64,000 nt of DNA from an uncultured Spirochaetaceae bacterium (GCA_964543935.1 CAZJAK010000001.1:3912-67911), one strand, 5' to 3'; counted from the stretch's first letter, positions 29,914 to 41,348 are shown. Numbers and translations are program-made. The notes: generated by a model from the sequence alone, not told the origin.

Positions 29914-30999
29914 ATGAAACGAACATCCTTGATCTTGGTGCTCGTGGTGCTGGTCGCGCTGTTTGCCGCCAGCGGATGCGCTACGACCGTATCGGTCAGG
30001 CATTTGATACCGGCCGAGACCGACATGTCGGCTTACCGGAATCTCGCCGTGGCCTCGACCGAGCCTTTCTCGTTCGGATTTTTCAACCGGCCGTCGTCGA
30101 TCGTCCCCGATTATTCGGGCAAGTCGGGCCTGACTGTCGCGAGCGGCTTCGGCACCTTCACCGAGTTGTCCATCGCCCGCTACGCCACAACGCGGTTGGT
30201 GCAGTCGTTGGACCGGGCCGATTATTTCACGCTGTTGCCCCCTTCGCAGACCGATACGATCATGAAGGGCAAGAACCTCGGCTTCACCATCTCGGAGATG
30301 CTGATGCGCAATGGAGTCGAGGCGTTGTTCACTAGTTCGATTGATTATCTCGATGTGGATGAATACATCTATGCTGTCGAGAAAAACCTGCTCATAAGCA
30401 AGGACCCGGTCACCGGCAATCCGATCAATCCTCCGGTCAGCCAGAAAGTCATCGTGTATTACTTGATGCAGAAGGTCAGCTTGACCTACTCGTACGAGAT
30501 CGTCGATGCCCGCACCGGCAAGGTGATTGTGAGCCGGACCCTCCACGACAGCCAGGAGCGCTCCTTTGACCTCACCGGAAAACCGGCCAAAGGCTATGTG
30601 GCTCCATCGTTGGAACCGATGATCGAAGAGATGTTGCAGGATTTGATCGATCCAGTTGTCCAACAGATTGCACCGAGGTGGGAGACCACCACGTTAAGCC
30701 TGATGAAGAATGAACCCGAGCGAAAGAACGTTGAATTCGCTTGGGAGGAGGTGCGGCGAGGAAACTTGGCCATCGCACTGGAAGCTTTCAAAAAGGAATG
30801 GAACCGCAGTGGCCATATCCCTTCAGGCTATAACGCTGCCTTGATCATGGAAGCAATGGGAAACCTTGAACAAGCTATCGACTTGATGGAAGATGTCTAT
30901 CAAGAGAGCGGCAACAATTCGATTTATTCGATGCTGCGCAGGATGCGCCAGCGTTTGCAGGACCAAGCCGAGGCCGAAGCACAGCTGTTGGGGCAATAA
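29914..30999 (+). CDS. Hypothetical lipoprotein with helical (TPR-like) C-terminus
   Basis: MKRTSLILVLVVLVALFAASGC is a signal peptide plus ASGC lipobox. I recognise no family. Confidence 0.62.
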   Translation: MKRTSLILVLVVLVALFAASGCATTVSVRHLIPAETDMSAYRNLAVASTEPFSFGFFNRPSSIVPDYSGKSGLTVASGFGTFTELSIARYATTRLVQSLDRADYFTLLPPSQTDTIMKGKNLGFTISEMLMRNGVEALFTSSIDYLDVDEYIYAVEKNLLISKDPVTGNPINPPVSQKVIVYYLMQKVSLTYSYEIVDARTGKVIVSRTLHDSQERSFDLTGKPAKGYVAPSLEPMIEEMLQDLIDPVVQQIAPRWETTTLSLMKNEPERKNVEFAWEEVRRGNLAIALEAFKKEWNRSGHIPSGYNAALIMEAMGNLEQAIDLMEDVYQESGNNSIYSMLRRMRQRLQDQAEAEAQLLGQ

Positions 31000-31594: not shown

Positions 31595-31622
31595 TCTACA
31601 AACTCAAGAAACAGGATATAAT
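31595..31622 (+). promoter_or_regulatory. Sigma70-like promoter of the PHP-ATPase-RloB-LuxR cassette
   Basis: Perfect TATAAT at 31617-31622. TCTACA (4/6 match to TTGACA) sits at 31595-31600 with a 16-nt spacer. A GAGG SD is 8 nt before the ATG at 31643. Confidence 0.4.
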
Positions 31623-31642
31623 CGCCGCATGAGGTTCTGCTG

Positions 31643-32296
31643 ATGGGATTCATCGAAGTTCATTCACACCTGTTGCCTTTCGTCGATGACGGGGTCGGAA
31701 CCAAAGAATCCTGCCTGGCGGTCCTCGAAGCGTACGCCGCAGCAGGTTTCGACCGCGTGGTCGTGACGCCGCACTTGTACAACCCGTATGTATCCACCAG
31801 GACACAGAACATCAGGGCCATGTATGCGTGGGCGGCGCAAGAGGCCAAGCGGATGGGGCTCGCGTTGTATTTGGGCAGCGAAATTTACGTGGGGATGTCC
31901 GACAGCACCAATGTGTTGCCGTTCATGGGCAGGTTCGTGCTGGTTGAGGTCGATTACTATTCTGAACCGTTGTTCCTTGTCAACCACGCCTACACATTGC
32001 TCAAACGGGGTTACCATGTGGTGTTGGCTCATGTCGAACGGTACCGCTGGTTCTCGACAAAGAGCCCTCTGGCTGTGAAGCTGCGCGAATTGGGTGTCCA
32101 TTTCCAATGCAATGTCGACGGGGTCGAATCGGGTGTCGCCGCCAAATGGATGGCTAGTGGCTGGATAGACGTTCTGGCGGGCGACAATCACGGGGATGCT
32201 GGTCTGCCGGCCAAATTGGCCGCCATGTTGCAACGTTATCCAGAAATATCGGCTAGGATGGAATCTCTGTTCATCGCCGATGAAGCAATCATATAG
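31643..32296 (+). CDS. CpsB/YwqE-type PHP-domain protein-tyrosine phosphatase
   Basis: IEVHSHLLPFVDDG, TPHLYNP, GSEIY, LAHVERY, QCNVDG and GDNHG match, in order, the metal-binding His/Asp motifs of the CpsB family (from memory of the family pattern). Confidence 0.8.
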   Translation: MGFIEVHSHLLPFVDDGVGTKESCLAVLEAYAAAGFDRVVVTPHLYNPYVSTRTQNIRAMYAWAAQEAKRMGLALYLGSEIYVGMSDSTNVLPFMGRFVLVEVDYYSEPLFLVNHAYTLLKRGYHVVLAHVERYRWFSTKSPLAVKLRELGVHFQCNVDGVESGVAAKWMASGWIDVLAGDNHGDAGLPAKLAAMLQRYPEISARMESLFIADEAII

Positions 32297-32308
32297 GGAG
32301 GGGCTCAT

Positions 32309-33541
32309 ATGCTGCTCGACTTGACGGTTTCCAACTTCCGTTCCGTTCAGTCACCGCAAACGATCTCGTTCGAAGCCGTCAAGGACAATCGGCTTCCCGA
32401 ATCAAAGGTGGTGAGGGTTTCTGACAAATTGAAAGTGATCAAGACCAGTGCGATCATCGGTCCCAACGGAGCCGGAAAGAGCACGATGGTCAGGGCTCTG
32501 GAAGCCCTCAAGGCGATCATCGTAGCGCCGGCAGAAGTGGAGAATCCCCTTCAATTGCTGGCCGGCACTTCGTTCGCCTATTCGGAGACGAAAGGCGGTC
32601 CTGCCAACATGGTGTTGGATTTGATCCTGGGCAGCGACGAGGCTTCCGGCTTGCCCATTGTCGGCCGTTTCACCTTCGTGGCCGACCGTGAGAAGGTCTT
32701 CGAGGAGTCGTTCTACCACATCATCGGACGTTCCAAGAAACTGATGTACGAGCGCAAGCTGATCGACGGCGACGCAGAAACCCTCGCGTACCGCTATCGT
32801 TGGGGCAAGCTGTTCAGGGGCGAAAAGAAACGGATGCTTCCCAAGGTCACCCCGAAACAACTCTACTTGAGTGCAGCCGCCCGCAAGGGCAGTCCGACTT
32901 TGACCCCGTTGTTCCAGTGGTTCTCGGAGTCGTTGATGATCCTGCCTTTCGGGCTTTCGACCCAGAGCGAAAAGGTCATCGTGGAACAGCTGGTCAAGCA
33001 TCCCGGCTGGAAAAAGCAGTTGATCGATTTCCTGTGGAGCATCGATATCACCGACATCCGTGATGTGCGCATCCAGGATGACAAGGTTGTCTTCGTCCAC
33101 ACCAACGTCAATCAGCATTATGCCTCGTATTTCTCCAGCGAGTCGCTCAGCCTCAGGCGTTTGACCTCGATCGCGATGGCGATGTTCGAGAGTTTCTCCA
33201 GTCCGCGCTGCTTGGTGATAGACGACTTCGGGATGCTGCTCCATCCGGCCGCCTTGGAACATCTGGTGAGCGTGTTCGAATCGGGCAATGTCGGCAACGG
33301 TTCCCAAGTGTTGGCGGTCGATTGCAATCCTTCGTTACTGCGCGACGGGCTGCTCCGGCGCGATGCCGTGTGGTTCGCCGAGAAAAACAAGGAATCGGCG
33401 ACAGTGTATTACAGCTTGGCCGACTTCAAGTTCTCTCGGTCCAAGGAACGGACGGAGATGCTCTACCTCAATGGCGCTTTCGGGGCCTTGCCGATCACCA
33501 GCGAATACAGCTTTTCCGATGACGTGAAGAAGGAGCGTTGA
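32309..33541 (+). CDS. ABC/SMC-like AAA ATPase (AAA_21/AAA_15 type, AbiLi/AriA-like)
   Basis: N-terminal LTVSNFRSV...TISFE strand motif, Walker A GPNGAGKST, signature-like ESLSLRRLTS, and a Walker B/H-loop CLVIDDFGMLLHP. A GGGAGGGG SD is 5 nt upstream. The gene starts 12 nt after the PHP gene stop. Confidence 0.85.
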   Translation: MLLDLTVSNFRSVQSPQTISFEAVKDNRLPESKVVRVSDKLKVIKTSAIIGPNGAGKSTMVRALEALKAIIVAPAEVENPLQLLAGTSFAYSETKGGPANMVLDLILGSDEASGLPIVGRFTFVADREKVFEESFYHIIGRSKKLMYERKLIDGDAETLAYRYRWGKLFRGEKKRMLPKVTPKQLYLSAAARKGSPTLTPLFQWFSESLMILPFGLSTQSEKVIVEQLVKHPGWKKQLIDFLWSIDITDIRDVRIQDDKVVFVHTNVNQHYASYFSSESLSLRRLTSIAMAMFESFSSPRCLVIDDFGMLLHPAALEHLVSVFESGNVGNGSQVLAVDCNPSLLRDGLLRRDAVWFAEKNKESATVYYSLADFKFSRSKERTEMLYLNGAFGALPITSEYSFSDDVKKER

Positions 33542-33543
33542 AC

Positions 33544-34188
33544 ATGAAGAGAAAAAAAGTCCATCAAGAGCCAAGGAAATCGATGTTGATCGTAACCTCG
33601 ACCGAGGCGGAGGCACTCTACTTCTCCCAGATGCGCAAAGATTGCCGTTACACCAACTTGACGGTCCGCTGGGGTGAAGGTGCGGCGAGCCTCGATGAAT
33701 TGATCTCCGAGACGGCCCGCATCCGTACAGCTGGAAAATTCGACAACGCTTGGGCGGTGTTTGGATTCGACGCCTTCACGGTCACATGGGATCACGTCAG
33801 AAGCGCCTTGGAGAAAGCCGAAACCAAGAAGATCAAGCTTGCGTGGAACAATCCTGGTTTTCCATTGTGGTACCTGTTGCATATCCAAGCTCCCCGCTTG
33901 CCGATCGGCGACATGGCAGTGGTGGTGAACTCGTTGCGTGGCCATCTGGCAAAATTCGATCCGGGGGCCCAGTATCTGTTGCAAGAAGGCAACTCGCTCC
34001 ACCTGCGCCTGTTCCCGTTGAAAGCTCAGGCGGTGTTGAACGCTGGTGCCTACAACGCCTTGACCGAGCGGCGCAATGGAGGAATGCAGTCGACCACGAT
34101 GGTCCGTCTGCTCAGCGAAATCACCGAATGGTGCGGCTTGGCCGACATCTCCCATAACCAAAAACTGATCGGATTGAAGAATTCATGA
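33544..34188 (+). CDS. RloB-like (Toprim-related) protein, AbiLii-like, apparently degenerate
   Basis: MLIVTSTEAEALYF, AWAVFGFD and KLAWNNPGFPLWYLLHIQ line up with my recollection of the RloB pattern (LIVCEGxxTExxYF ... VFDxD ... SNPCFElWlLLH). The ATG at 33544 has AAGGAG 8 nt upstream, inside the ATPase 3' end. Confidence 0.65.
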   Translation: MKRKKVHQEPRKSMLIVTSTEAEALYFSQMRKDCRYTNLTVRWGEGAASLDELISETARIRTAGKFDNAWAVFGFDAFTVTWDHVRSALEKAETKKIKLAWNNPGFPLWYLLHIQAPRLPIGDMAVVVNSLRGHLAKFDPGAQYLLQEGNSLHLRLFPLKAQAVLNAGAYNALTERRNGGMQSTTMVRLLSEITEWCGLADISHNQKLIGLKNS

Positions 34189-35075
34189 CGATGCTCGGAC
34201 AGGGGCTTTCCATCCTGTTGTACATGTTTGCTTTCGCCACGGGGTGCATGACCTTGGTGCTCTCCGTGGTGTTCCATTTGCGTGAATCGTACCAATGGAC
34301 TAAATACTTCATCGTCTTCCATTCATCGCTCCTGCTGGTCATCGTGTTGCAAGTCCTGCACGTGTTCGTCAATGTATTTGTCGGCGATACGCTCGGGGCG
34401 GTCCTTTCCTATGTGATCAAAGCTTTGTTGGCGGCCAATGTCAGCTTCCTCATGGTGTTCATCCCTTATTTCACCACTTGGGTGATCGCGCAACCGTGGC
34501 GCAATCCCTACAAGGCCGTATTTTTCTTAATTGCGGCGGCCTACACGGCCTTGTCGGTCCTCGACACGGTGTTCCTCACCATCAAAGCGCTTGAATCATG
34601 GATGGTGGTCGTCTTTTGCTTGGTGATCTTTTTCTGCGTCGGCACGATCGTGGTCAACCTCAAGACCATCAAGCGCCACGACGTGCGCACGGTGAGCAAT
34701 GCCATCATCATCCTCTCGTTCGTCATGATGCCGTTGCTGGTAGTCAGCGTGTTCATCCCGACTGTGCGCTACATCACCTATCCGTTGTACTTCATGGCCT
34801 TCTCGATCATCATCCTGGTCTACCTGTTCATTTACTTCCGACGCATCCCGCAAGAGGTGCCCAAAGTCCTGACCATCGAGAGCTTGGAGAAGTATCACAT
34901 CACCGAACGGGAATTCTCGGTGATCCAGTTGATCAAGGCCGGGCAGACCAACAAGGAAATAGCCGACAAGCTTGACATCTCGGTGAACACGGTGAACAAT
35001 CATGTGGCGAACATCTATGCCAAGATGCAGGTACGCAGCCGTATCGACTTGTTGAACGCGCTGCATGAAGCCTGA
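34185..35075 (+). CDS. Membrane-anchored (about 7 TM) LuxR-family transcriptional regulator
   Basis: About seven hydrophobic helices span residues 1-225. They are followed by a LuxR/GerE HTH: ITEREFSVIQLIKAGQTNKEIADKLDISVNTVNNHVANIYAKMQV. ATGA overlap with the RloB-like stop. Confidence 0.8.
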   Translation: MTMLGQGLSILLYMFAFATGCMTLVLSVVFHLRESYQWTKYFIVFHSSLLLVIVLQVLHVFVNVFVGDTLGAVLSYVIKALLAANVSFLMVFIPYFTTWVIAQPWRNPYKAVFFLIAAAYTALSVLDTVFLTIKALESWMVVVFCLVIFFCVGTIVVNLKTIKRHDVRTVSNAIIILSFVMMPLLVVSVFIPTVRYITYPLYFMAFSIIILVYLFIYFRRIPQEVPKVLTIESLEKYHITEREFSVIQLIKAGQTNKEIADKLDISVNTVNNHVANIYAKMQVRSRIDLLNALHEA

Positions 35076-35088
35076 CGGAGGGACCGTT

Positions 35089-35892
35089 ATGGAAGGCCAA
35101 GCGTTGCCTCAAGTGCGCCGGTGCGCGCGTCCGATCGTGTTGACCCACCCAGAGGGTGCCGACAGGGCCATCGTGGCCTGCCATGGGTTCACCGGGTATG
35201 CCGGGGAGTTGGCTTTGCCCGCCAAGCGGTTGTTCGAAGCAGGGTTCGACGTCTATGTGCCGCGCTATCCGGGACACGGCACCAACGGCAAGGATTTCAT
35301 GGCCAGCACTGCTGAGGATTGGATGGGTGCTGCCGAGCGCCAACTGGACGAACTGGAAGGCAAGTACCAGGGCATTTCATTGATGGGCCATTCGATGGGA
35401 GGTGCCATCGCCGTCGTCGCAGCCCGGCATCGGAACATTGAAAAGATGGTCCTCTATGCACCAGCGTTGGCGTTGCCGACCATTCCGGTCAGAACGATAA
35501 GGTTTCTCAGCCATTTCATCAAGCGCAAAGGCCGCCCGTGGGCTCGCGATCCACGCTATGTGTTCTTCGATGAACGCGATCCGGATGACGACGAGTTCCT
35601 CGGACGCGAGTATTGGTCGTACCTCTATCCCGCCCAAGTGCTGGAATTGTTGCGGATCAAGGAGCGCGCAGTGGAAGCTTTGCCTGAAGTGAAGGCCGAT
35701 ATCTTGGTGTTCACTGGCGGCGAGGATGCGGTGATACCGCAGGAAGTCGGCCCGCTTGTCTTGTCGACCGGCAAAGGCAAGAACAATTGGATCCATCTGC
35801 CACTGGCCAGCCATTTGATTCCCTATGATAAGGATGAAAGTTCGCGCGAACAGGCCATGAACCGCACGGTGGCATGGTTGACCCAGTCATAG
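35089..35892 (+). CDS. Alpha/beta hydrolase (esterase/lipase-like)
   Basis: GHSMGG nucleophile elbow and HGFTG oxyanion region. The ATG at 35089 has a GGAGGG SD 6 nt upstream and lies 13 nt after the LuxR stop. Confidence 0.8.
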   Translation: MEGQALPQVRRCARPIVLTHPEGADRAIVACHGFTGYAGELALPAKRLFEAGFDVYVPRYPGHGTNGKDFMASTAEDWMGAAERQLDELEGKYQGISLMGHSMGGAIAVVAARHRNIEKMVLYAPALALPTIPVRTIRFLSHFIKRKGRPWARDPRYVFFDERDPDDDEFLGREYWSYLYPAQVLELLRIKERAVEALPEVKADILVFTGGEDAVIPQEVGPLVLSTGKGKNNWIHLPLASHLIPYDKDESSREQAMNRTVAWLTQS

Positions 35893-37128
35893 CCGCACGA
35901 TTGTCTCGACGACCGTATCGATCCCGTTGCGGATGTCCTCGGCATCAAGCTCAATTTCCACATCGGGCATCAGCGAGCCATCTGGTGCGCCATCGGCATG
36001 GAAATATTTGGTCGAATACCCGACTTGGTGCAAGCTAGCCGGCAACGTGAAGCGTTTGACCTCGCCGTAATGACTGGCACTGCCTCCAGAGGGGGTGCCC
36101 GCGAGGGTGCAATCGGTCCGGGCTTTGAGATGCAATGCGTTGAGGATCGCCGATGAGAAGGTCGAGCTGCCGATCAGAGCGAACAGTTGAAAGCCGTAGG
36201 ACTTCTGGAGTCGGCCCAGCAACTTCACTGTTGGTTCGAACAGGCGTGAATCGCCCCCACCGTTGTAACGCAGGTCCACGATGACTTTTTGCGGATGCTT
36301 GGCCATGATGGCTTGCTCGATGTCGGCATTGAAGTCGTCCAGTGGGTAAGCGTTGTCCTCGGAGCACCGGTTGTATTGGATGAACACCACCGCAGATGTC
36401 CCCATGTCAACGATCCGGTAGAATTCGGTCCCCGGGGATGTCGGAGGACGATTGGTTTGCAAGTAGCTGTATTCCATCCCCGGTTCGGCAAGCGGGATGG
36501 TCACTTCAATCTCTTGGCCGTCGGTTGTGATGGTGAACAGGCAACTGCCAACTTGGTCGATGATCCGGCAGTGCCCAAGCGCAGAAGCGTTGCGCATCAG
36601 ACGGGCACACTGCTGCATCCGCCACACCTCGTTGTCCGCACTCACATATGATTCTAGGACGCGGGCGACATCCTCGATCGGTGTACCGTTGATGGCAGTC
36701 ACGCAACCTCCCACCAGATCAGCATAAGGTGAGGCAATGGCCGTGACAACATGACGTCCTCCGATTGGAGTGAGTTGGATAGCCAGATAGCGCATCGAGG
36801 AGGCCACCGCCGTAGAAGCAGTGACCGTGGTGTGCGAATCCCCCATCAAGGCGGCCAACCGACAGAGCGCAAAGTAAAAGGCGGTCTGGTCCAAATTGTC
36901 TGCTTGGCTGAACACCTCTGCGCACGCATCAGCGAACACATCGGCCTTGACGTTGGCCCACGGGTTTTTATGGCGGTCCGCCAACGTCGTGGCGAAGGTC
37001 TTCAAGTCGGATGCTTGCGAGAGCGCTAAAGAGCTCTCATTGAGAAACGGATGGTGCAACTGCGCACGAGCTGGACCGATTGCCCCGAACACGGCAACGG
37101 TGAGCAGCATCAACCTGAAAAGGAACAT
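35887..37128 (-). CDS. S41-family (tail-specific/C-terminal processing-like) peptidase, secreted
   Basis: VIVDLRYNGGGDS and GSSTFSSAIL are S41 catalytic-region motifs. The start is set at MFLFRLMLLTVAVFGAIGPARA (signal peptide, 37128). Confidence 0.72.
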   Translation of the reverse strand: MFLFRLMLLTVAVFGAIGPARAQLHHPFLNESSLALSQASDLKTFATTLADRHKNPWANVKADVFADACAEVFSQADNLDQTAFYFALCRLAALMGDSHTTVTASTAVASSMRYLAIQLTPIGGRHVVTAIASPYADLVGGCVTAINGTPIEDVARVLESYVSADNEVWRMQQCARLMRNASALGHCRIIDQVGSCLFTITTDGQEIEVTIPLAEPGMEYSYLQTNRPPTSPGTEFYRIVDMGTSAVVFIQYNRCSEDNAYPLDDFNADIEQAIMAKHPQKVIVDLRYNGGGDSRLFEPTVKLLGRLQKSYGFQLFALIGSSTFSSAILNALHLKARTDCTLAGTPSGGSASHYGEVKRFTLPASLHQVGYSTKYFHADGAPDGSLMPDVEIELDAEDIRNGIDTVVETIVRL

Positions 37129-37199
37129 GTCCCGATGATAACGCGTTGCGATTCGTGATGCAATCGGGGTGATTGTTGGCTGTCTGTCGATGTTCAATG

Positions 37200-37226
37200 T
37201 TGCCACTTTTTCCTTTTTGCTATAAA
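37200..37226 (+). promoter_or_regulatory. Candidate gltX promoter (TTGCCA, then 15 nt, then TGcTATAAA)
   Basis: TTGCCA at 37200-37205 and an extended -10, TGCTATAAA, ending at 37226. The ATG is at 37279. The spacer is shorter than optimal. Confidence 0.3.
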
Positions 37227-37278
37227 ACTGTAGCAGCCGGGCCATCAAGGCACCGGGCAGTCAGGAGGAAGCCTTTCC

Positions 37279-38760
37279 ATGGATGTTCGGGTCCGCTATG
37301 CCCCGTCACCGACGGGATTGCAACACATCGGCGGCGTCAGGACGGCGCTGTTCAACTATTTCTTTGCCAAAAGTCAAGGCGGCACCTTCATCCTGCGGGT
37401 CGAAGACACCGATCAGGGACGTTCCACCGACGAAGCATTGCAGGACCTCTACGACACGCTGCAATGGTTGGGTGTCAAGTGGGACGAGGGTCCCATCGTG
37501 GGCGGCCCCTATGGTCCGTACATCCAAAGCGAGCGCTTCGCAATCTACCAGGAATATGCCCGGCAGTTGGTCGAGTCGGGCAAGGCCTATCCGTGTTACT
37601 GTTCGGAGGAGCGCTTGGAACAGGTCCGACAGCAACAGGTTGCCGCCAAAGCCCAGGAGCAGGGCTACGACCGCCACTGCCGCAACCTCGACGCCGACCA
37701 AAAGGCCGCCTATGAGCGACAAGGCCTCAGGCCGGTCATTCGGTTGAAGGTTCCCCTCGAGGGGAGCACGACCTTCCACGATGTGCTGATGGGTGACATC
37801 ACCCGCAAGAACCGCGATGTCAATCCCGATCCGGTATTGCTCAAGTCGGACGGATTCCCTACCTATCACTTGGCCAACGTCATCGACGATCATCTGATGG
37901 GCATCACCCATATCATGCGGGCTCAGGAATGGATTCCTTCGGGACCGTTGCACATCCTGCTGTACGAAGCGTTCGGCTGGAAAGCCCCGCTGTACTGCCA
38001 TTGGCCCAGGGTGATGGGCAAGGACGGCCAGAAACTCTCCAAGCGGCACGGATCGACTTCGGTGCGTGAATTCAAGGAGAAGGGCTACTTGCCCGAAGCC
38101 CTCATGAATTATGTGAGCATGGTCGGGTGGTCTTACGACGGGGTCAAGGAGTTCTTCAGCAAGGAGGAACTCGAACGGCTGTTCGTGTTGGAGAAGATCA
38201 ACAAAGCTCCCGGAGTGTTCGACTACAAGAAGCTGGATTGGTACAACGGGATGTACATCAGGGCAAAGAGCGATGCCGAGTTGGTTGCGTTGATCACGCC
38301 CTACTTGGTGCGGTCCTCGTTGGTGGCCGACCCGCCGACGGAGGCCCAACATGCCACGATTCTTGCTTTGGTGCCGGTCGTGAAAGAACGCCTCAAGGTC
38401 CTATCCGACGTGGTCGACATGACCCGCTTCGTCTTTGCCGACATTCCCGCTCCGTCGGTCGAGGAATTGTTGCCCAAGAACCAAGATGTCGCGACGACTC
38501 TGGCGGCATTGCAAAAGGCGGTAGCGGTTATCTCGGACATGGGCCGGCGCAGCGACGAGGAACTCGAACAGGAGATGGCTTCGATCGCCCAATCGATGGG
38601 GATCAAGATCAACGGGATTTTCATGCCGGTGCGCATGGCTGTCACCGGCAGCACGGTGAGCCCTCCTCTGTTCGATTCAATCAGATTGTTGGGTTTTGAG
38701 CACGCAATGGTCCGCCTAGAACGGGCGGTAGCGATACTTACGCGAGAAATGGGGAAGTGA
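37279..38760 (+). CDS. gltX: Glutamate--tRNA ligase
   Basis: RYAPSPTGLQHIGGVRTALFNY (HIGH) and KLSKRHG (KMSKS). Confidence 0.95.
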   Translation: MDVRVRYAPSPTGLQHIGGVRTALFNYFFAKSQGGTFILRVEDTDQGRSTDEALQDLYDTLQWLGVKWDEGPIVGGPYGPYIQSERFAIYQEYARQLVESGKAYPCYCSEERLEQVRQQQVAAKAQEQGYDRHCRNLDADQKAAYERQGLRPVIRLKVPLEGSTTFHDVLMGDITRKNRDVNPDPVLLKSDGFPTYHLANVIDDHLMGITHIMRAQEWIPSGPLHILLYEAFGWKAPLYCHWPRVMGKDGQKLSKRHGSTSVREFKEKGYLPEALMNYVSMVGWSYDGVKEFFSKEELERLFVLEKINKAPGVFDYKKLDWYNGMYIRAKSDAELVALITPYLVRSSLVADPPTEAQHATILALVPVVKERLKVLSDVVDMTRFVFADIPAPSVEELLPKNQDVATTLAALQKAVAVISDMGRRSDEELEQEMASIAQSMGIKINGIFMPVRMAVTGSTVSPPLFDSIRLLGFEHAMVRLERAVAILTREMGK

Positions 38761-38777
38761 ACATGGGTGAAGTTACG

Positions 38778-40088
38778 ATGGACAAGCTGGTCTCTTTGTG
38801 CAAGCGGCGCGGTTTCATTTATCAGTCGAGCGAAATTTATGGTGGGCTCACCGGCGCTTACGACTACGGCCCGCTTGGTGTGCAATTGAAAAACAACATC
38901 CGTGATTTCTGGTGGAAGGAGATGACCCAGCTTCACGACGACATCGTCGGCCTGGACGCCTCCATCCTCATGCATCCGCGTGTCTGGGAGGCCTCCGGCC
39001 ATGTCTCGAACTTCACCGATCCGATGGTGGACTGCAAGCAATGCAAGAGCCGCTTCAGGGCCGACCAAATCGACCTCAACGGGGCCTGTCCGACGTGCGG
39101 GACCAAAGGATCGTTCACCGAGCCGCGCAACTTCAACTTGATGTTCGCCACCCATATCGGCCCGGTCCACGACGACGCCTCGATCGTGTACTTGCGTCCT
39201 GAGACTGCTCAAGGCATCTATGTCGATTTCAAGAACATCGTGCAAAGCAGCCGGGTGAAGGTCCCCTTCGGTATCGCCCAAGTCGGCAAGAGCTTCCGCA
39301 ACGAGATCACCACCAAGAATTTCATCTTCCGCTCGTGCGAGTTCGAGCAGATGGAGATGCAATTCTTCTGCAAACCGGGTACGGACGAGCAGTGGTTCCC
39401 GTATTGGCGCCAGCAGCGCATGGCCTTTTATCACAAAATGGGCATCAAGCCCGATTCGTTGCGCTGGCACCAGCACGGTCCGGATGAGTTGGCCTTCTAT
39501 GCCAAGGACGCCTACGACATTCAATTCTTGTTCCCGATGGGTTGGCAAGAGCTTGAGGGTGTGCACAGCAGGACCGATTACGATTTGTCGCAGCACCAGA
39601 AATTCAGCGGCAAAGACATGACCTACCTCGACCAAGAAAGCGGCGAGCGCTACATCCCCTATGTGGTGGAAACCTCGGCTGGCTTGACCCGCAACGTCCT
39701 GATGGCCCTATCCGACGGTTACGAGGAGCAACAACTCCCCGATGGCGATGTGCGGACCGTCCTGCATTTCCATCCGGCCATCGCTCCGGTGACCGTGGCG
39801 GTTCTACCGTTGGTCAAAAAGGACGGGCTCGGGGAATTCGCTGAAAAACTCGAACATGACTTGCGTGAGGATTTCACCACCTTCTTCGATCTCAGCGGGG
39901 CCATCGGGCGTCGTTACCGCCGGATGGACGAGATCGGTACCCCGTATTGCGTGACAGTCGATTACCAGACCTTGCAGGACAACACCGTGACCTTGCGCTT
40001 GAGGGATTCCATGGAACAGCTGAGGGTGTCGATCGATGCATTGCCATCCGAGATCCGCAAGCAGACCAAGCAGTACAAACGGGTGTAG
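38778..40088 (+). CDS. glyQS: Glycine--tRNA ligase (dimeric GlyQS type)
   Basis: MDKLVSLCKRRGFIYQSSEIYGGLTGAYDYGPLG is a canonical N-terminus, and class II motifs are present. Alternative starts are at 38757 (GTG, overlapping the gltX stop) and 38763. Confidence 0.9.
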   Translation: MDKLVSLCKRRGFIYQSSEIYGGLTGAYDYGPLGVQLKNNIRDFWWKEMTQLHDDIVGLDASILMHPRVWEASGHVSNFTDPMVDCKQCKSRFRADQIDLNGACPTCGTKGSFTEPRNFNLMFATHIGPVHDDASIVYLRPETAQGIYVDFKNIVQSSRVKVPFGIAQVGKSFRNEITTKNFIFRSCEFEQMEMQFFCKPGTDEQWFPYWRQQRMAFYHKMGIKPDSLRWHQHGPDELAFYAKDAYDIQFLFPMGWQELEGVHSRTDYDLSQHQKFSGKDMTYLDQESGERYIPYVVETSAGLTRNVLMALSDGYEEQQLPDGDVRTVLHFHPAIAPVTVAVLPLVKKDGLGEFAEKLEHDLREDFTTFFDLSGAIGRRYRRMDEIGTPYCVTVDYQTLQDNTVTLRLRDSMEQLRVSIDALPSEIRKQTKQYKRV

Positions 40089-40094
40089 GAGAAG

Positions 40095-41348
40095 ATGATG
40101 AACAAAGGTTTACAGGTCCTCATGGACCGAGGATTTGTCCGCCAATGCACCGATCTGGAGGGTTTGTCCGACTTGATGGACAAGCAACCGGTCAAGTTCT
40201 ACCTGGGAGTCGATCCGACCGGCCGCAGCATCCATATCGGCCATATGGTGCCCTTCTTCGCCATGCACCACCTCCAGGAAGCGGGGCACTGCCCGGTGGC
40301 TTTGGTCGGGGACGGCACCGCCATGATTGGCGACCCGTCGGGCAAGACCGAGATGCGCAAGATGCTTTCGATCGAGGAGATCCGGGCCAACAGCGCAGCC
40401 CTGAAGGACCAGTTGGGCACCGTCGTCGATTTCAGTGATAATCCCGATGGCGGCAAGGGCAGGGCCATCATGCTCAACAACTACAGTTGGTTGGGGCAGT
40501 TGAACTATATCGAGTTCCTGCGCGACATCGGCAAGCACTTCTCGGTCAACAGGATGCTGACCTTTGAATCCTACAAGCAGCGTTTGGAACGGGGCTTGTC
40601 GTTCATCGAATTCAATTATCAGCTGCTGCAATCGTTCGATTACCTGACTCTCTACCGCAACGAGGCTTGCCGCTTGCAAATTGGCGGAGATGACCAATGG
40701 GGCAACATCGTGGCCGGGATAGAATTGATCCGCAAACTCGAAGGAGCGGAATGTTATGGGTTGACCTTCAACCTCATCACTCGTTCCGACGGACAAAAAA
40801 TGGGCAAGAGCGAGAAGGGGGCGGTGTTCCTCGACCCCACTCTGTTCAGCCCGTACGATTTCTTCCAATATTGGCGCAACGTGAACGATGACGACGTCAT
40901 CAAGTTCATGAAGCTGTTCACGTTCCTCCCGTTGGATGAAATCGAGTCTTACGCAAGACCCGCTGTCAACATCAACGATGCCAAAGAACGCCTTGCCTAC
41001 GAGCAGACCAAGATCATCCATGGCCAAGAAGAGGCCGAAAAAGCCCGCCGTGCAGCAAAGGCGTTGTTCTCGGCAGCCTCTCCAGCAGCCGACAGCGAGG
41101 GGATCCCATCGATTGAACTGGATGCAGAGCGGCTTAAAGCGGGTATCGGCGTCCTGGAGTTATATGCCATGACCGATCTGTGCAAGACCAATTCCGATGC
41201 CCGGAGGTTGATTGAGCAGGGTGGGGCTTCGATCAATGAACAAAAAGTCACCGATTCGAAACAAATGGTCGACCTTGAGTGGGTCAAGGACGGGCATTTA
41301 TTGCTGAAAGCGGGCAAGAAGCGTTACTTCAAGATATCGGTGCGCTGA
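40095..41348 (+). CDS. tyrS: Tyrosine--tRNA ligase
   Basis: GVDPTGRSIHIGHMVP (HIGH), QKMGKSEKG (KMSKS) and a C-terminal S4-like domain. It starts 6 nt after the glyQS stop. Confidence 0.95.
   Translation: MMNKGLQVLMDRGFVRQCTDLEGLSDLMDKQPVKFYLGVDPTGRSIHIGHMVPFFAMHHLQEAGHCPVALVGDGTAMIGDPSGKTEMRKMLSIEEIRANSAALKDQLGTVVDFSDNPDGGKGRAIMLNNYSWLGQLNYIEFLRDIGKHFSVNRMLTFESYKQRLERGLSFIEFNYQLLQSFDYLTLYRNEACRLQIGGDDQWGNIVAGIELIRKLEGAECYGLTFNLITRSDGQKMGKSEKGAVFLDPTLFSPYDFFQYWRNVNDDDVIKFMKLFTFLPLDEIESYARPAVNINDAKERLAYEQTKIIHGQEEAEKARRAAKALFSAASPAADSEGIPSIELDAERLKAGIGVLELYAMTDLCKTNSDARRLIEQGGASINEQKVTDSKQMVDLEWVKDGHLLLKAGKKRYFKISVR

Follow-up and report, generated by a model that had tools for sequence, protein, structure and literature searches.

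Results

Five co-directional genes with minimal spacing

The window analyzed here is a stretch of 64,000 nucleotides (nt) from an uncultured Spirochaetaceae bacterium (GCA_964543935.1, CAZJAK010000001.1:3912-67911), in which five genes on the plus strand form a compact cassette around an ATPase gene and an RloB gene, whose products match the two components of AbiL abortive-infection systems. Gene 1 (31643-32296) encodes a PHP protein of the CpsB_CapC type with 217 amino acids (aa), gene 2 (32309-33541) an AbiLi-type ATPase with an AAA_21 domain, and gene 3 (33544-34188, ATG start) a protein matching the RloB/AbiLii profile. They are followed by gene 4 (34185-35075) for a transmembrane LuxR-type regulator (TM-LuxR), which combines a GerE helix-turn-helix (HTH) with about seven hydrophobic segments, and by gene 5 (35089-35892, ATG start) for a hydrolase of the Hydrolase_4/Abhydrolase_6 type. 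An earlier note on this DNA, made from the sequence alone, had described five co-directional genes with minimal gaps, an ATGA overlap and a convergent S41 peptidase gene at the end of the unit, and both the open reading frame (ORF) calls and the reading of the sequence bore this description out. Its domain calls were likewise recovered for all five genes by Pfam and PADLOC profile searches, and the motifs it quoted (GPNGAGKST, CLVIDDFGMLLHP, VFGFD and NNPGFPLWYLLH) are all present.

The PHP and ATPase genes are separated by 12 nt containing GGAGG, while only 2 nt lie between the ATPase and RloB genes, with AAGGAG placed inside the 3′ end of the ATPase gene. The RloB stop codon and the LuxR start codon overlap as ATGA, and a gap of 13 nt, again with GGAGG, leads to the hydrolase gene. 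In 20 orthologous loci, described below, the corresponding distances ranged from -8 to +2 nt between ATPase and RloB and from -4 to +6 nt between RloB and LuxR. As judged from these junctions, the five genes are translationally coupled, and the coupling is conserved across the family.

A sigma-70-type promoter sequence was located at 31595-31622 on the plus strand, within the 95-nt spacer between CobO and the PHP gene. It consists of TCTACA, a 16-nt spacer and TATAAT, and matches the consensus at 10 of 12 positions. Since the consensus scan found 5 sites where 3.1 were expected, a lone match of this kind is little proof of the promoter that the earlier note had read from TATAAT. The box itself fared better, because nearly all orthologous loci keep a TATAAT at the equivalent position 5′ of the PHP gene.

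The RloB partner lacks the catalytic residues of its canonical relatives

The product of gene 3 matched RloB in Pfam (E-value of 1.5e-16, 61.6 bits against a cut-off of 31.5) and AbiLii in PADLOC (E-value of 8.4e-11). According to PMC12065111, RloB belongs to the Toprim superfamily, with its catalytic Glu located on the beta1-alpha1 loop and a DxD motif following beta3. A canonical set of 15 RloB sequences was taken from genes downstream of distant AbiLi homologs, and all 15 carried [CA]-E-G at the first site (14 with Glu, one with Asp) and D-x-D at the second. By comparison, the catalytic Glu was absent from all 29 sequences of the subfamily to which the window protein belongs, which have Ser, Ala or Thr in its place. 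All 29 have also lost the first Asp of DxD, mostly to Gly and more rarely to Ser or Asn, and only about half of them keep the second, so that the alignment reads T-S/A-T/S in place of CEG and G-F-x in place of DxD.

The AlphaFold2 model of the window RloB, with a pLDDT (predicted local distance difference test) of 90.7, puts the altered sites where beta1 (residues 14-18) and beta3 (residues 68-74) end. A Foldseek search with this model returned nothing below an E-value of 0.01 and only generic Rossmann-like folds, and a search of PDB sequences gave no match even at an E-value of 10. Because Foldseek gave no structural match, the Toprim assignment rests on the Pfam and PADLOC profiles, the alignment and the order of the strands. 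On this basis, the RloB partner is predicted to be a pseudo-nuclease with Toprim topology. VFGFD, which had been taken for an RloB-type block in the earlier note, is present but corresponds to the decayed DxD site, whereas the guess made there of a non-nucleolytic output fits a protein with neither the Toprim Glu nor an intact DxD.

The subfamily has invariant RloB motifs of its own, namely FxQMRKDCRYxN, NLHLxL and a C-terminal CGxADxSHNQK. Residues 27-38 (33622-33657) and 197-207 (34132-34164) contain two invariant Cys, a conserved His and a basic patch. The C-terminal motif was also considered as a docking peptide for LuxR and rejected, as no clear correlation appeared: locus L052 keeps part of it despite having no LuxR, and L049 has lost part of it despite having one.

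The ATPase keeps its P-loop and fold but not its catalytic signatures

The ATPase matched AbiLi in PADLOC with an E-value of 4.7e-58 and AAA_21 in Pfam with an E-value of 6e-10 (40.1 bits against a cut-off of 27). Profile assignment of genes 2 and 3 thus succeeded along the lines of the earlier note, and an AbiL-type origin of the pair is supported. The Walker A motif GPNGAGKST is intact, and its GPNGAGKS part is invariant in the subfamily and present in canonical relatives. Three other sites differ between the two groups. The catalytic residue of Walker B is Glu in 33 of 34 canonical relatives and Asp in 7 of 7 subfamily members (D306 in the window), the signature Gly, found in 34 of 34 canonical relatives, is Ser in 6 of 7 subfamily members (S281 in the window), and the H-loop His, found in 30 of 34, is Cys or Val in the subfamily (C339 in the window). 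CLVIDDFGMLLHP, previously read as an ABC-like Walker B/H-loop, is therefore present as a motif but has Asp for the catalytic Glu, and the true H-loop His position, about 30 residues further on, is occupied by Cys.

Canonical AbiLi relatives also have an arm insertion of about 45-65 residues, which the subfamily ATPase lacks. The AlphaFold2 model of the ATPase (pLDDT of 92) is a compact head of the Rad50/SMC type, and the best Foldseek matches in PDB were Rad50, Septu PtuA, OLD nuclease and SMC heads, with E-values of 1e-10 to 1e-9. Searching PDB by sequence gave matches at the level of the P-loop only. To judge from the alignments and the model, the ATPase retains the P-loop and the Rad50/SMC-head fold, and its catalytic signatures are degenerate.

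Distribution and vertical inheritance of the cassette

Each GTDB species was represented by one genome in a scan with exact peptide words, which recovered ATPase sequences of 51-85% identity from 20 species of Sphaerochaetaceae and from one incomplete contig. When these loci were searched by tblastn with all window proteins, the five cassette genes were found in identical order in 18 of 20, the exceptions being L014, which lacks the PHP gene, and L002, where the contig ends within the LuxR gene. The upstream neighbor in the 20 loci is a lipoprotein gene, usually accompanied by CobO, and GltX-GlyRS lies downstream in most of them. Over about 30 lineages of Sphaerochaetaceae/Spirochaetales examined, the cassette occupies one chromosomal place, usually flanked by lipoprotein/CobO on one side and GltX-GlyRS-TyrRS on the other. 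For example, the complete genome of Sphaerochaeta pleomorpha Grapes (CP003155) has the exact gene order of the window, including the S41-like gene, and that of Parasphaerochaeta coccoides (CP002659) contains the cassette without PHP. Each orthologous locus examined repeats the gene order and the tight spacing. Such recurrence across many genomes rules out a chance juxtaposition, so that the association of the ATPase with its neighbors noted earlier in a single sequence holds across genomes.

Pairwise identity of the ATPase followed the mean identity of GltX and GlyRS closely (r = 0.95). Purifying selection acts on the ATPase and RloB as strongly as on GltX and GlyRS, with approximate ratios of non-synonymous to synonymous substitution rates (dN/dS, Nei-Gojobori) of 0.01-0.05 for the ATPase and 0.04-0.15 for RloB, compared to 0.01-0.07 for GltX/GlyRS. 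Synteny, co-divergence with the synthetases and low dN/dS all point to vertical descent, and we regard the cassette, on this comparative sequence evidence, as a vertically inherited chromosomal operon at a fixed housekeeping locus.

Matches to the ATPase dropped from an E-value of 3e-88 (41% identity) to 3e-41 (32% identity or less) in generic AbiLi, with only fragments between. With RloB as the query, 144 clusters were obtained; with PHP there were about 94, and then came a gap to canonical CpsB proteins of 260 aa. All named members belong to Sphaerochaetaceae, Spirochaetaceae or Spirochaetales. By these searches, the subfamilies are discrete and restricted to the lineage.

The PHP protein and its possible link to a tyrosine kinase

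The PHP protein matched CpsB_CapC in Pfam (E-value of 1.8e-25, 90.2 bits against a cut-off of 27), and scored 45.4 bits with the NCBIfam Cps4B equivalog model, for which the cut-off is 400. Its metal ligands (HxH, DDG, TPH, E, AHxE and DxH) are kept in the orthologs, except in L018, where they are degenerate. The gene is absent from L014, L049-51, L052 and P. coccoides.

Among the lineages sampled, the most divergent one is represented by L061 and L062, and its GlyRS is only 70% identical to that of the window, compared to 82-90% within the family. In L061, the genes are ordered as PfkB, NTP-transferase, a 912-aa protein with Wzz, GNVR and P-loop (AAA_31) domains, PHP, ATPase, RloB, TM-LuxR and DUF6051, then a 66-aa remnant of the hydrolase, an opposite-strand HTH gene with a 140-aa ORF, and GltX-GlyRS-TyrRS. 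The RloB of this lineage is also without catalytic residues. The DUF6051 gene (L061 11258-12853, 410 aa, E-value of 2.5e-88) replaces the alpha/beta hydrolase, and the adjoining 66-aa fragment is 53% identical to the hydrolase of the window. The 912-aa protein, directly upstream of PHP, is a Wzc-like BY tyrosine kinase. When the kinase, DUF6051 and the 140-aa ORF were searched for in the window and in all loci, the kinase was found only in L061. CpsB-type phosphatases canonically pair with BY kinases. Since the kinase stands next to PHP in L061, this partnership suggests that PHP is a genuine phosphotyrosine phosphatase, and also that the operon arose beside, or within, a module for polysaccharide or envelope phosphoregulation. 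A role of PHP as a replacement effector was considered as well and rejected, because five lineages keep the pair although their PHP is lost or degenerate, and because PHP lies beside its canonical kinase partner in L061.

The LuxR regulator, the hydrolase and the extent of the unit

The LuxR protein has a GerE domain at residues 240-289 (E-value of 1.1e-18, 67 bits against a cut-off of 23.5), preceded by seven hydrophobic segments between residues 7 and 222. Its N-terminal 220 residues gave no Pfam or NCBIfam match, and neither a receiver nor an autoinducer-binding domain was found there. Matches to CARF3/CasR in PADLOC and to EpsA in NCBIfam covered the HTH only and stayed well below the cut-offs, so they were not used as evidence. 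A full-length homolog with 43% identity is present in L061. The hydrolase matched Hydrolase_4 in Pfam (E-value of 7.7e-22, 78 bits), and its Ser102 (in GHSMG), Asp213 and His242 are invariant in 20 orthologs. With their catalytic or DNA-binding residues kept, PHP, LuxR and the hydrolase all look functional.

Downstream of the hydrolase, most loci continue with GltX. The window and S. pleomorpha have the S41-like gene there, L058 has a FecCD transporter gene on the opposite strand, and L004 and L008 have other genes. Because the downstream neighbors differ in this way, the conserved block ends right after the hydrolase. LuxR and the hydrolase are both absent from L047, which reads PHP-ATPase-RloB-DEAD helicase, and from L052, which reads ATPase-RloB-GltX. 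The five-gene cassette of the earlier note is thus real but not indivisible, as PHP is missing in at least four lineages and LuxR with the hydrolase in two. Given these losses, we take the ATPase/RloB pair as the constant core and the full cassette as its usual state.

Comparison with known systems

AbiL of Lactococcus, a PADLOC/DefenseFinder family, is like the window pair in its two-gene core, in which an AAA_21/Rad50-like ABC ATPase is followed by an RloB-type protein with a Toprim fold, the genes being overlapping or adjacent, and both window components match the AbiL profiles strongly. The pair differs from AbiL in that its RloB has neither the Toprim Glu nor an intact DxD, and in that its ATPase shows Glu to Asp, Gly to Ser and His to Cys changes and has no arm insertion. 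It is also a vertically inherited core locus rather than a plasmid or defense-island gene, and about 30 canonical AbiL loci contained none of the PHP, TM-LuxR or hydrolase genes of the cassette subfamilies. The nearest canonical AbiL pair (L053 1077-8378) has an ATPase 32% identical to that of the window by HMMER and 28% by tblastn, and an RloB with CEG and DRD intact. Genes for a DUF1156 protein and a large SMC-like ATPase come next on that strand, a context typical of defense islands and unlike that of the window.

In PARIS, according to PMC11464382 and a review (PMC13064643), an ABC ATPase (AriA) serves as scaffold or sensor together with a Toprim partner (AriB), and the system acts, as stated in the former, through a catalytically active Toprim protein that cleaves tRNA. 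The window pair shares this ABC ATPase and Toprim architecture. Its ATPase gave only a partial and weak match to AriA (E-value of 1.5e-9, residues 48-173), catalytic Toprim residues are absent, and no match of gene 3 to AriB or DUF4435 was found in the profile searches. OLD and Gabija (GajA) fuse the ATPase with Toprim, unlike the separate genes of the window, and the GajA and Old profiles matched the window ATPase marginally (E-values of 6e-4 to 1.6e-3) and over the P-loop only. The ATPase domains of Septu PtuA and OLD are among the best fold matches of the ATPase model, but with sequence identity of 10-14%, and the window has no HNH partner of the Septu kind. Unlike rloA/rloB of type I restriction-modification loci, the pair does not lie inside an hsdR/M/S locus, and scanning the ORFs over about 19-53 kb of the window turned up no restriction-modification domain.

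Two cellular systems offer further comparisons. RecF-RecR is a housekeeping, vertically inherited system in which an SMC-like ABC ATPase has a non-nuclease partner with a Toprim domain. The likeness is meant as a functional analogy, with no sequence relationship claimed; RecR keeps acidic Toprim residues and a zinc finger, and RecF and RecR are not linked to a membrane LuxR, PHP or hydrolase. Capsule phosphoregulation by CpsB/CpsC/CpsD (Wzc-type) resembles the cassette through gene 1, a CpsB_CapC PHP with all metal ligands, and through L061, where PHP comes after a BY kinase and sugar-nucleotide genes. It differs in that canonical CpsB exceeds the window PHP in length by about 45 residues and in that neither the window nor the other loci contain a kinase or polysaccharide gene.

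Discussion

A defense-type pair probably recruited for a cellular role

The loss of catalytic residues, combined with vertical inheritance as a conserved operon, gives the cassette the look of a defense module recruited for a cellular, probably regulatory, job. We consider the chances slightly better than even that it is an exapted, non-nucleolytic derivative of AbiL, in which the ATPase/pseudo-Toprim pair serves as an ATP-binding switch or scaffold in a signaling operon, possibly one linked to the envelope. One conserved promoter drives the five coupled genes, and in such a derivative the ATPase would bind ATP with slow hydrolysis or none. With the pseudo-Toprim RloB it would form a nucleotide-dependent switch or scaffold instead of a nuclease toxin, and the pair would work with the co-translated 7TM-LuxR regulator and the serine hydrolase. 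PHP would act as a phosphotyrosine phosphatase of the CpsB type whose ancestral partner was a Wzc-like BY kinase, and this ancestry would tie the operon to envelope or exopolysaccharide signaling. A fuller version, in which, no later than the origin of Sphaerochaetaceae, an AbiL/PARIS-class module became domesticated as a non-nucleolytic, ATP-gated signaling or scaffold complex feeding the membrane LuxR and the control of the envelope by tyrosine phosphorylation, is more tentative, and we would place it a little short of even chances.

Several points weigh against this interpretation. Asp can sometimes replace the Walker B Glu, and the invariant RloB residues (RKDCR, HNQK and two Cys) could form a new active, binding or metal site. 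The dN/dS values are approximate because dS exceeds 1 and is near saturation, and loci found in a scan with exact words do not allow presence to be counted family-wide. The window has no kinase or polysaccharide genes, and the link to a BY kinase comes from the single lineage of L061/L062. In addition, every one of PHP, LuxR and the hydrolase is missing from some lineage, so none of them has to be functionally coupled to the pair.

We weighed three other explanations, among them that the cassette is an anti-phage system of the AbiL type which became fixed in the family, with the pair sensing infection and the output passing through LuxR transcription, the hydrolase or a PHP phosphoesterase effector. 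Strong AbiLi and AbiLii profile matches, the Rad50/PtuA/OLD-like fold of the ATPase, its intact P-loop and the tight coupling to three genes for intact enzymes or a regulator speak for such a system. Defense genes are usually patchy in distribution and fast-evolving, whereas this cassette is vertically inherited at a fixed housekeeping locus under synthetase-like constraint, and has lost the catalytic residues of both nuclease and ATPase. Scanning viral contigs with the ATPase, by exact peptide words of limited sensitivity, revealed no relatives, and no defense genes were found among the flank ORFs checked. The candidate effectors are moreover dispensable, since the pair persists where PHP is lost (at least four lineages) and where LuxR and the hydrolase are lost (L047 and L052). 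We thus judge an anti-phage function unlikely and the pair probably not an abortive-infection nuclease system; the framing of the cassette in the earlier note as a new defense system or a sensor/effector variant is not supported, given its vertical inheritance, its fixed locus, the absence of relatives on the viral contigs scanned and the degenerate motifs of the ATPase.

It is less probable still, in our estimate, that the pair has a housekeeping role with nucleic acids, either similar to RecF-RecR or related to tRNA, and that PHP, LuxR and the hydrolase are mere syntenic neighbors. The persistent position beside GltX-GlyRS-TyrRS may suggest a role related to tRNA, and the pair stands alone directly upstream of GltX in L052 and upstream of a DEAD-box helicase gene in L047. 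The strongest constraint falls on the ATPase, and RloB has a conserved basic patch (RKDxR). The analogy to RecF/RecR fits this explanation too, as does the cleavage of tRNA by the PARIS Toprim protein described in PMC11464382. Against it, the 20 orthologous loci show the LuxR start either overlapping the RloB stop or at most 6 nt away from it, LuxR is retained in the deepest lineage, L061, and the conserved block stops exactly after the hydrolase. A decaying, functionless AbiL remnant held by linkage would account for the degenerate catalytic motifs of both proteins, but we think it very improbable: reading frames are intact in every lineage, dN/dS values of 0.01-0.15 indicate purifying selection and contradict decay, many residues are invariant, including the subfamily-specific motifs, and both AlphaFold2 models are confident.

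Implications for annotation

Our literature search found no paper on this locus or on defense systems of Sphaerochaeta, and public annotation of the genes is generic only (AAA family ATPase, RloB domain protein, HTH regulator and CpsB/CapC phosphatase). Because both PADLOC profiles match the window proteins, PADLOC or DefenseFinder would probably label the pair as AbiL in the Sphaerochaetaceae genomes that carry it. Such calls may inflate inventories of defense systems, as a probable systematic false positive. The cassette offers a testable case of a defense-type ABC ATPase/Toprim pair turned into a constrained, lineage-defining cellular module, and it opens the questions of how immune modules become exapted and what pairs of pseudo-ATPase and pseudo-nuclease do. 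As a conserved uncharacterized operon with a 7TM-LuxR, a serine hydrolase and a CpsB phosphatase, it may bear on envelope regulation in the atypical, non-spiral spirochaetes (Sphaerochaeta). If exaptation is the true explanation, this would be, as far as the literature found and general knowledge go, the first described case in which this class of defense system entered a core cellular function.

Flanking genes and other features of the window

Neither the tRNA scan nor the Rfam scan, both run over the entire window, gave a hit, and the window accordingly contains no riboswitch, T-box or tRNA integration site. The flanks at 19-31 kb and 40-53 kb contained housekeeping genes and no integrase or transposase domain; the neighbors checked included Obg, NadD, PdxA, ABC transporters, CobO, GltX, GlyRS, TyrRS and glutamate dehydrogenase. 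These scans agree with the earlier note, which had seen no integrase, transposase or tRNA in the flanks.

The convergent S41-like peptidase gene (35887-37248, minus strand) overlaps the 3′ end of the hydrolase gene by 6 nt with its own 3′ end and sits between the hydrolase and GltX. Its Pfam match is weak, with 24.1 bits at the cut-off. A gene with 36% identity occupies the same place in S. pleomorpha and is absent from the other 20 orthologous loci, which makes it a lineage-variable insertion. GltX, GlyRS and TyrRS follow in a row at 37279-41348, directly downstream, and this trio comes after the cassette in most lineages, including L061. Long antisense ORFs of 214-301 aa lie on the minus strand opposite the cassette genes (31664-32308, 32402-33307 and 33463-34161), and are likely by-products of coding sequence with 55-56% G+C.

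Upstream of the cassette, a predicted lipoprotein of 361 aa (29914-30999, plus strand) has the lipobox AASGC and no Pfam match. It precedes the cassette in nearly every lineage, including those without CobO or PHP, and may be a functional part of the operon or reflect mere synteny. CobO, which lies between the lipoprotein and PHP genes, is wholly missing in L012-L020 and is reduced to remnants of 105-125 aa, with 27-29% identity to part of CobO, in L058 (560-937) and L059 (889-1206).

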